Source: Escherichia phage NHEP36. Taken from it: DNA of 64,000 bases. Below the pieces are notes generated by a model. The model saw only the letters and a program-made list of their open reading frames with translations. It was not told where the DNA came from and made no database searches. Made by a program: the position numbers and the translations under genes. The stretch's first letter is position 1; every line of letters starts with the position of its first letter. The stretch lies in the sequence record PQ511151.1; one strand, written 5' to 3'. This document shows positions 7,673 through 8,476 of the stretch, in pieces.

Positions 7673-8016
7673 CCAAAATGTTGGCTTTAATAGTTGGCTT
7701 GGTTTCATTTAACGCTCTTGCTAATACTACATATACTGATATAACGGAGTATACAAACAGAACGGCGTCTGATTATTGTGGTCAAAGTCAAGAGTGTAAA
7801 GTAGATTTTTCACAAAAATTGTTATATGCGTATAAAGACGGAGAAAAAGATGGGGCGTCTAGTAGGTTTAAGGCGTCTACCTTAATTAAAAGATACTATA
7901 AAAAATGGCAAATATTAGAATGCTCGGTGGCGGAACCTAAAGATAAGGCAGCATGCAATTCTATGGTGGACCGTCTAGTTGACTCTTATAATAGAGGACT
8001 TGCAGCAAGTGATTAA
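7669..8016 (+). CDS. hypothetical secreted/membrane-anchored protein
   Basis: ORF track 115 aa; N-terminal hydrophobic signal-like segment; position of T4 vs. Confidence 0.5.
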   Translation: MTKMLALIVGLVSFNALANTTYTDITEYTNRTASDYCGQSQECKVDFSQKLLYAYKDGEKDGASSRFKASTLIKRYYKKWQILECSVAEPKDKAACNSMVDRLVDSYNRGLAASD

Positions 8017-8476
8017 AAACTATATCAAGGGCGATATTGTCGCCCTGTTTTCTAAAGGTAATAATATCGCTCATGGGTGTAATTGTTTTCATACAATGGG
8101 CGCAGGTGTGGCAGGACAATTAGCAAAGGCTTATCCAAAAATTCTGGAAGCCGATAAACTTCAAACCGAATTTGGAGACGAGTCTAAACTCGGGACTTAT
8201 TCGGTTTACGAAAAATATTTTAAGACCCATAAAGCTTATTGCTTTAATCTTTATACACAGTTTGAGCCGGGACCTAATTTTGAATACTCTGCTTTAATGA
8301 ATTGTATAATAGAATTAAATGAATTCGGAAAGAATAAGATAACAAAGCCTGTAATTTATATGCCAAGAATTGGTGCAGGTATCGGTGGTGGAAACTGGGA
8401 TGTCATCGAAGAGATTTTAGATACGTATTCCACTAAACTAGAAATTGTGATTGTTGATTGGGAACCATTATTATGA
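8009..8476 (+). CDS. macro domain (ADP-ribose binding/hydrolase-like) protein
   Basis: Motifs GDIVALFSKGNNIAHGCNCFHTMGAGVAGQL and IGAGIGGGNW resemble macro-domain signatures; start set at in-frame GTG 8009 (ORF track begins 7979 on TTG); start uncertain. Confidence 0.6.
   Translation: MIKNYIKGDIVALFSKGNNIAHGCNCFHTMGAGVAGQLAKAYPKILEADKLQTEFGDESKLGTYSVYEKYFKTHKAYCFNLYTQFEPGPNFEYSALMNCIIELNEFGKNKITKPVIYMPRIGAGIGGGNWDVIEEILDTYSTKLEIVIVDWEPLL

Follow-up and report, generated by a model that had tools for sequence, protein, structure and literature searches.

The locus considered here raises the question of what a phage gains from a macrodomain, the protein fold that recognizes ADP-ribose. The stretch analysed, called the window throughout, comprises 64,000 nucleotides of Escherichia phage NHEP36 (PQ511151.1), and the open reading frame (ORF) in question is the following:

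8009..8476, + strand: macrodomain gene, 155 amino acids, ortholog of T4 tk.4/adfM, with a GTG start and a TGA stop.

A sequence-only reading had called this ORF a macro-domain protein and had proposed two roles for it, timing control of host RNA polymerase modification through ModA/ModB-like ADP-ribosyltransferases of the phage, or anti-defence. Of these the second is upheld, T4 tk.4 being adfM, a gene needed against DarTG2, while the first is not. We consider it likely that the protein, as an ortholog of Tk.4/AdfM, serves mainly to counter the DarTG2 toxin-antitoxin system of the host.

The gene encodes a stand-alone macrodomain

The macro-domain call was borne out by profile matches and by the predicted structure. 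Residues 22-136 matched positions 2-117 of the 118 in Pfam Macro (PF01661) with E = 1.9e-6 and 28.3 bits, above the gathering score of 22. The translation contains both motifs quoted in support of the call: residues 18-38 read NNIAHGCNCFHTMGAGVAGQL and residues 121-130 read IGAGIGGGNW. Structure prediction had been proposed as a check on the fold; the AlphaFold2 (AF2) model has the three-layer alpha/beta/alpha arrangement of a macrodomain, with a predicted local distance difference test score (pLDDT) of 95.9 and a predicted template modelling score (pTM) of 0.91. The closest structural matches were all macrodomains of the ALC1-like/TARG1 class, the top Foldseek match being human TARG1/OARD1 (PDB 4J5R), and the profile E-value to TARG1 was 9e-16. 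In a plain sequence search against solved macrodomains, the E-values were 6.5e-11 for BT1257, 1e-8 for Poa1p, 7e-5 for SCO6735, 9e-4 for Thermus DarG and 1e-3 for TARG1. Macrodomains are found in about 41% of myoviruses (PMC9503650).

The sole model matched in a defence-protein library was DarG (E = 9e-9), and only in its macrodomain part. Against the NCBIfam DarG equivalog NF048014 the protein scored 31.9 bits where the cut-off is 250, and only profile positions 4-146 of 338 were matched. Neither the C-terminal DarT-binding domain nor an adjacent darT gene was present, the protein having 155 residues and the neighbours being gene "vs" and tk.3. The protein is therefore orphan-DarG-like and not a DarG.

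T4 has a syntenic ortholog that is required against DarTG2

The sequence-only reading could not say whether T4 has an equivalent. It does: tblastn gave 83.9% identity over 155/155 residues to T4 Tk.4, named 'Tk.4 conserved hypothetical protein' in the T4 record, and the order regB - vs.1 - vs - tk.4 - tk.3 - tk.2 - tk.1 - tk - rI.1 - rI is common to the window and T4. The two genes share their start position over the "vs" stop codon, their neighbours, a hairpin near the 5' end (described below) and all residues that are invariant in the family. They differ in the start codon (GTG in the window, ATG in T4) and in 25 substitutions, one of which, G127 for K127, lies in the second glycine-rich loop, and the phages belong to different genera, Mosigvirus for the window phage and Tequatrovirus for T4. 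By identity and synteny, the gene is an ordinary Mosigvirus counterpart of T4 tk.4/adfM, and thus belongs to a known anti-defence family.

The function of the T4 gene comes from the HIDEN-SEQ preprint of November 2025 (bioRxiv 10.1101/2025.11.20.689424). After growth of a saturated T4 transposon library on DarTG2-expressing E. coli, only tk.4 was significantly depleted, and a clean tk.4 knockout made T4 sensitive to DarTG2. The gene was accordingly renamed adfM, for 'anti-DarT factor Macrodomain'. Removal of ADP-ribose from DNA was inferred there from structural similarity to M. tuberculosis DarG. We would expect the same DarTG2 phenotype of the 84%-identical protein in the window.

The active site is of the Gln type

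The residues that would bind and process ADP-ribose are encoded by these segments of the gene:

8060..8122, + strand: residues 18-38, NNIAHGCNCFHTMGAGVAGQL, with the H22-x-C-N25-C motif, the counterpart of SCO6735 H24/N27 and DarG N22, and the first glycine-rich loop for ADP-ribose binding.
8258..8260, + strand: codon CAG of Gln84, at the position of TARG1 Lys84, DarG Lys80 and SCO6735 Gln85; invariant in 61 homologs.
8363..8398, + strand: residues 119-130, PRIGAGIGGGNW, the second glycine-rich (phosphate-binding) loop; G122/G124 equivalent to SCO6735 G126/G128.

Binding of ADP-ribose is predicted from both glycine-rich loops together with Asn25 and Asp9. In the profile alignment with TARG1, the catalytic dyad of that enzyme was absent, Lys84 being replaced by Gln84 and Asp125 by Gly126. 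The sequence of SCO6735, taken from a PDB alignment queried with the BT1257 sequence, was then aligned to the family profile with hhalign. Here N80-L-Y-T-Q84 corresponded to N81-M-I-G-Q85, H22/N25 to H24/N27 and G122/G124 to G126/G128. The protein thus has the features of the SCO6735/BT1257 type, namely a Gln at the catalytic position held by an Asn, plus the equivalents of His24 and of the G126/G128 loop. Among the 61 homologs, which are 38-88% identical, Q84, N80, T83, G122 and G124 were invariant and N25 and H22 were at least 90% conserved. The equivalence with DarG Lys80 is transitive, by way of TARG1 Lys84 and SCO6735 Gln85 (PMC5179494, PMC9411070). A six-sequence MAFFT alignment was set aside near the catalytic position because it misplaced TARG1, and the profile alignment was used instead. 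In a PDB query with the C-terminal 96 residues of the window protein, the glycine loop alone was aligned.

Streptomyces coelicolor SCO6735 (PDB 5E3B) and Bacteroides BT1257 (2FG1/2AFC) are Gln-type ALC1-like proteins of about 24-30% identity to the window protein, cellular rather than phage-encoded, and the loop insertion that follows the Gln in SCO6735 is absent from the window protein. SCO6735 cleaves thymidine-linked ADP-ribose from DNA and protects cells against DarT; its Gln85 occupies the catalytic position, the changes Q85A/E and N27S abolish activity, and in the mechanism proposed, which uses a water molecule, the distal ribose is positioned by Gln85 (PMC9411070). The DarG macrodomain (PDB 5M31/5M3E/5M3I; NF048014; PADLOC DarG) is about 21% identical and differs in having Lys80 where the window protein has Gln84. 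This DarG lysine, the counterpart of TARG1 Lys84, is essential (PMC5179494). TARG1 too can reverse the ADP-ribosylation of DNA by DarT (PMC8501950).

The name AdfM was also given independently to a second phage protein, the chimallivirus macrodomain PhiKZ gp104, which removes thymidine-linked ADP-ribose in vitro and protects against DarTG2 in vivo (PMC13309987). Both it and the window protein are phage-encoded stand-alone macrodomains. By its description, however, PhiKZ gp104 is set apart from the T-even protein: it is DarG-like with a putative Asn23/Lys78 site, and thus of the Lys type, is imported into the phage nucleus and is expressed late (PMC13309987). Judged by its residues, T-even AdfM is a Gln-type enzyme, like SCO6735 and the Adpp homolog discussed below and unlike the Lys-type DarG and PhiKZ AdfM. 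The phage proteins named AdfM would therefore be of two mechanistic kinds.

Counter-defence against DarTG2 as the probable main role

These results suggest the following course of events. A single-domain, stand-alone macrodomain of the ALC1-like/TARG1 class would be made from the early vs-tk gene cluster. By ADP-ribosylating thymidines in single-stranded phage DNA, DarT2 blocks replication. The two glycine-rich loops of the macrodomain would bind the ADP-ribose, and the macrodomain would cleave the bond between ribose C1'' and thymine, restoring unmodified DNA and acting as an orphan antitoxin. Gln84, held by Asn25, may position the distal ribose while a water molecule starts the reaction, as proposed for SCO6735. 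The chemistry is probably not Lys-dependent as it is in DarG and TARG1; we infer that the window protein would act enzymatically on ADP-ribosylated DNA and would do so by a Gln/water mechanism.

Several points weigh against this explanation. By sequence, the closest experimentally characterized relative is the NARP1-associated Adpp family, which is not a DNA-ADP-ribose hydrolase. The lysines that position DNA in SCO6735 are not kept in the hhalign alignment, K34 corresponding to A32 and K89 lying in a segment absent from the window protein. The preprint deduces the putative enzymatic activity of Tk.4 from structural similarity, and the phenotype was seen in T4 with one DarTG2 system (bioRxiv 10.1101/2025.11.20.689424). 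Finally, SCO6735 also inhibits DarT by binding (PMC9411070), and a non-catalytic contribution is therefore possible. We also considered CmdTAC, a defence that ADP-ribosylates mRNA, as the target. It is an unlikely one, since CmdTAC strongly restricts T4 despite its tk.4.

A possible ADP-ribose-1''-phosphate phosphatase

The strongest competitor is that the protein is chiefly an ADP-ribose-1''-phosphate (ADPR-1''P) phosphatase, converting to ADP-ribose the ADPR-1''P that arises from aRES-type NAD+-depleting defences or from tRNA 2'-phosphotransferase chemistry. We rank it second after the anti-DarT2 role and consider it unlikely as the chief function; phosphatase activity may be a second activity of the protein or a minor rival. 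Its appeal begins with the PHROG 335 'phosphatase' match (E = 5e-67), as Adpp/Poa1p-like activity underlies the 'phosphatase' label in both PHROG and RefSeq. Poa1p was among the top structural matches and shares the H-x-C-N-C motif with the window protein, but has Ser and not Gln at the catalytic position.

More direct is the report of January 2026 on NARP1, an operon for NAD+ reconstitution in some phages that may include Adpp, a Poa1p-like macrodomain (10.64898/2026.01.28.702374). Purified Adpp of Vibrio phage Gary dephosphorylates ADPR-1''P, the product of aRES, to ADP-ribose, and Adpp is needed for NARP1-AP to overcome aRES (10.64898/2026.01.28.702374). The window protein is homologous to a NARP1-embedded macrodomain through the protein of Vibrio phage Athena, the protein assayed being that of phage Gary. 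The Athena macrodomain, encoded between Adps and Namat, is 37% identical (E = 2e-20) and keeps the HxCNC motif, with H, N and Q at the key positions. In the Athena record (NC_055851.1, locus L088, 2129-5135) the order is Adps, annotated as ribose-phosphate pyrophosphokinase, then a Gln-type macrodomain, then Namat, which is the NARP1-AP arrangement. With this identity and the same active-site residues, sequence cannot separate a DNA-ADP-ribose hydrolase from an ADPR-1''P phosphatase. In both reactions the bond broken is one at ribose C1''.

The genetic context, on the other hand, differs. Adpp works only together with NARP1, is encoded between Adps and Namat and has a soluble metabolite as its substrate, whereas the window phage type lacks NARP1 genes: neither the window nor the remaining 108 kb of phage NHEP10, which is 99% identical, contained a homolog of Adps or Namat (E<=0.01). 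Adpp is defined operationally by a position no more than two genes away from Adps and Namat; the macrodomain gene of the window has no such neighbours. Among 86 related loci, NARP1 genes lay within 3 kb in only two: the Athena locus, with both Adps and Namat, and L066, the most distant of the loci, with Namat alone. In Escherichia phages, about 1000 records have the macrodomain but only about 180-190 have Adps or Namat. The T4 ortholog, moreover, has a direct DarTG2 phenotype (bioRxiv 10.1101/2025.11.20.689424). The anti-DarT2 role is kept as the best explanation because NARP1 genes are absent from the context and because of the T4 genetics.

Possible inhibition of the toxin without catalysis

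Less probable again is that protection against DarT2 comes mainly from binding and inhibiting the toxin, or from shielding ADP-ribosylated DNA, with no need for catalysis. Precedents exist: the inactive Q85A form of SCO6735 is a stronger inhibitor of DarT in vitro than inactive DarG or inactive TARG1 (PMC9411070), and full-length DarG also inhibits DarT by interaction (PMC5179494). However, the DarG macrodomain alone with K80A shows no inhibition of DarT (PMC5179494), and the window protein, matching the DarG profile at its first part only, lacks the C-terminal domain by which DarG binds DarT. The strict invariance of Q84, N80, T83, G122 and G124 in the 61 homologs points to a conserved catalytic pocket.

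Proposed coupling to the ADP-ribosyltransferases of the phage

Further proposals concern the phage's own transferases. The paralogous ORFs 54265..54846 and 54904..55512, which had been read as ADP-ribosyltransferases, are indeed of the ModA/ModB type: they matched PHROG 832 'RNA polymerase ADP-ribosylase' with E of about 1e-38, and their tblastn matches are annotated modA/modB. The R, S-x-T(S) and E-x-E motifs, located by eye only, are YRG, SFT/SFS and EQE/ECE. An Alt-like ADP-ribosyltransferase gene was seen in the near-identical phage NHEP10 (PQ511148.1, 56782-58869; L090), and the phage type therefore has the full T4 set of Alt, ModA and ModB.

Alt, ModA and ModB are arginine-specific, whereas the ALC1-like class acts on ester- or nucleic-acid-linked ADP-ribose or on ADPR-1''P. 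The class has been characterized on Glu/Asp esters, nucleic acids and ADPR-1''P, and not on arginine. One arginine-specific macrodomain, MavL, is known (PMC10951314), and our literature search found no paper testing Tk.4 on Alt, ModA or ModB substrates.

Two proposals can be set against this background. In the first, the protein would be a promiscuous C1''-directed hydrolase whose Lys-independent (Gln/water) chemistry reaches beyond DarT2, also erasing the arginine-linked ADP-ribose placed by Alt, ModA and ModB or the RNA attached by ModB, with the hairpin described below setting the amount of enzyme. If this were true, the phage could control host RNA polymerase and ribosomal proteins in a timed and reversible way; we give the proposal a small chance. 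The mRNA ADP-ribosyltransferase CmdTAC still restricts T4 strongly when tk.4 is intact, and the protein is therefore no universal eraser.

The second, which we hold to be slightly less probable still, is the timing control of the sequence-only reading, in which the macrodomain would read or erase the ADP-ribose or RNA chains put on host proteins by Alt, ModA and ModB and so time the reprogramming of RNA polymerase and ribosomes. The presence of ModA- and ModB-like transferases in the window, and of the Alt-like one in NHEP10, speaks for it, but distribution, distance and substrate class are all against such coupling, and we found no support for it. Macrodomain homologs occur in 2799 phage records, including 182 of Pseudomonas, 134 of Vibrio, 94 of Acinetobacter and 86 of Aeromonas phages. 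Mod-like transferases occur in 1077 records, mostly of enterobacterial T4-like phages, and those four genera are outside the ten commonest, of which the tenth has 11 records. The macrodomain gene belongs to the early vs-tk cluster and is separated from modA/modB by about 46 kb, and tk.4 was classed as conditionally essential only with DarTG2 (bioRxiv 10.1101/2025.11.20.689424).

Least likely of all is a housekeeping macrodomain, an O-acetyl-ADP-ribose deacetylase or a YmdB-like regulator of RNase III, for which the automatic JGI name of homologs, 'O-acetyl-ADP-ribose deacetylase (regulator of RNase III)', speaks.

Gene start and surroundings

One long + strand ORF covers 7979..8476 in the ORF listing, its longest frame opening at TTG 7979. 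The start was placed at GTG 8009, as in the sequence-only reading, which lines up with the ATG of T4 tk.4; a start of the form (A/G)TGATT is common to six phages including the window phage, and TTG 7979 was rejected for that reason. A short motif read directly from the sequence precedes this start:

7994..7997, + strand: GAGG, Shine-Dalgarno-like, 11 nt 5' of the GTG start.

The GTG overlaps the stop codon of the upstream gene "vs" (GTGATTAA), and the TGA stop of the macrodomain gene overlaps the ATG of the tk.3 homolog (ATGA). In the record of phage TU01 (MZ560701.1, 110791-111171; L002, 2597-2977) the macrodomain gene starts at an internal ATG and has 381 nt, equivalent to 8096..8476 of the window. 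Residues 1-29, with strand beta-1 and the HGCNC motif, are lost in that annotation. A start at ATG 8096 was rejected for the window gene, as it would remove that strand and motif and as the (A/G)TGATT start is conserved. The TU01 record also names the Vs modifier 'valyl-tRNA synthetase'.

About 25 Escherichia phages of the Mosigvirus genus (JS09/RB69 group) share the 2.7 kb around the gene at 98.4-99.5% identity, and their records annotate the same gene as 'macro domain protein' or 'phosphatase'. PHROG and Pfam matches of the neighbouring ORFs fit the gene order shared with T4, giving gene "vs", an SLT-like vs.1, DUF7202 and a phage zinc-binding domain. The Vs.1 homolog (7130..7672, + strand) has an N-terminal signal-like sequence and a weak match to the SLT lytic transglycosylase domain (20.0 bits, cut-off 21.3); one of its relatives is annotated 'lysozyme domain protein'. 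Downstream, the small genes 8473..8685 and 8679..8888 (+ strand) gave full-length matches to DUF7202 (E = 1.6e-38) and to Phage_zn_bind (E = 3.7e-29, with several Cys), respectively. Both are recently defined Pfam families of unknown function.

The record of the related phage SA79RD marks a T4 middle (MotA-type) promoter, GCTT-N15-TAGAAT, within the macrodomain gene, at the stretch equivalent to 8291..8315 (+ strand). The sequence TGCTTTA at 8290-8296 of the window matches the MotA box, and this putative promoter would drive tk.3 to tk. A sigma-70 promoter scan of 5500-9800 gave 12 sites compared with 14.9 in shuffled sequences, which is fewer than expected by chance; the scan is therefore uninformative on the timing of expression.

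A conserved hairpin within the first codons

A terminator scan located a structure inside the coding sequence:

8028..8046, + strand: GC-rich hairpin AGGGCGAU-AUU-GUCGCCCU, followed by a U-rich tract, in codons 7-13, beginning 12 nt past the "vs" stop.

Although their proteins are only 57-84% identical, the window, T4, Sf24 and Dhakavirus IME281 have the same 20-nt block, AAGGGCGATATTGTCGCCCT. In the relatives the hairpin lies at 3019-3038 of L001, at about 1519-1538 of L003 and L004, and at about 1520-1538 of L006. Vequintavirus FFH2, with 40% identity, has GGGAGAT-TTA-ATCTCCC at the equivalent place; its letters are changed, and the stem has therefore been kept by paired changes. Further variants of the stem are AGGCGAC...GUCGCCU and GGGCGAU...AUCGCCC. 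Across 67 distinct 5' ends of homologs, a stem of 7-9 pairs is kept in lineages that encode KGD(I/L)(V/I)AL or EGDLISL and is absent from the others. Compared with 300 permutations of synonymous codons within the same gene, the stem of the stem-keeping lineages is the more stable (p = 0.003-0.043). A search of Rfam gave no family for the hairpin region, the sole match being a chance microRNA with E = 0.55. The hairpin may terminate or stabilize the upstream transcript as an mRNA 3' end, or it may attenuate tk.4. In phage T2, tk.4 mRNA was captured with the host small RNA ArcZ by RIL-seq, according to a preprint.

Meaning for the phage and the family

A homolog of another anti-DarT factor was seen elsewhere in the window, namely of AdfA, the anti-DarT1 factor T4 gp61.2. 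It lies at 49199..49849 (+ strand), is 66% identical and carries Arg (NNINRIASVY) where T4 has His, which is the RB69-like allele. The RB69 allele of AdfA was reported to be unable to neutralize DarT1 unless it carries R164H. An RB69-like AdfA together with an intact macrodomain predicts that the phage would resist DarTG2 but would have no AdfA-based protection against DarTG1.

The kind of gene and its likely function have already been described, as near-identical proteins in GenBank are named 'macro domain protein' and the T4 ortholog is a named anti-DarTG2 factor. What the comparison brings out, beside the Gln-type active site and the conserved 5' hairpin, is one sequence family with two reported anti-defence activities.

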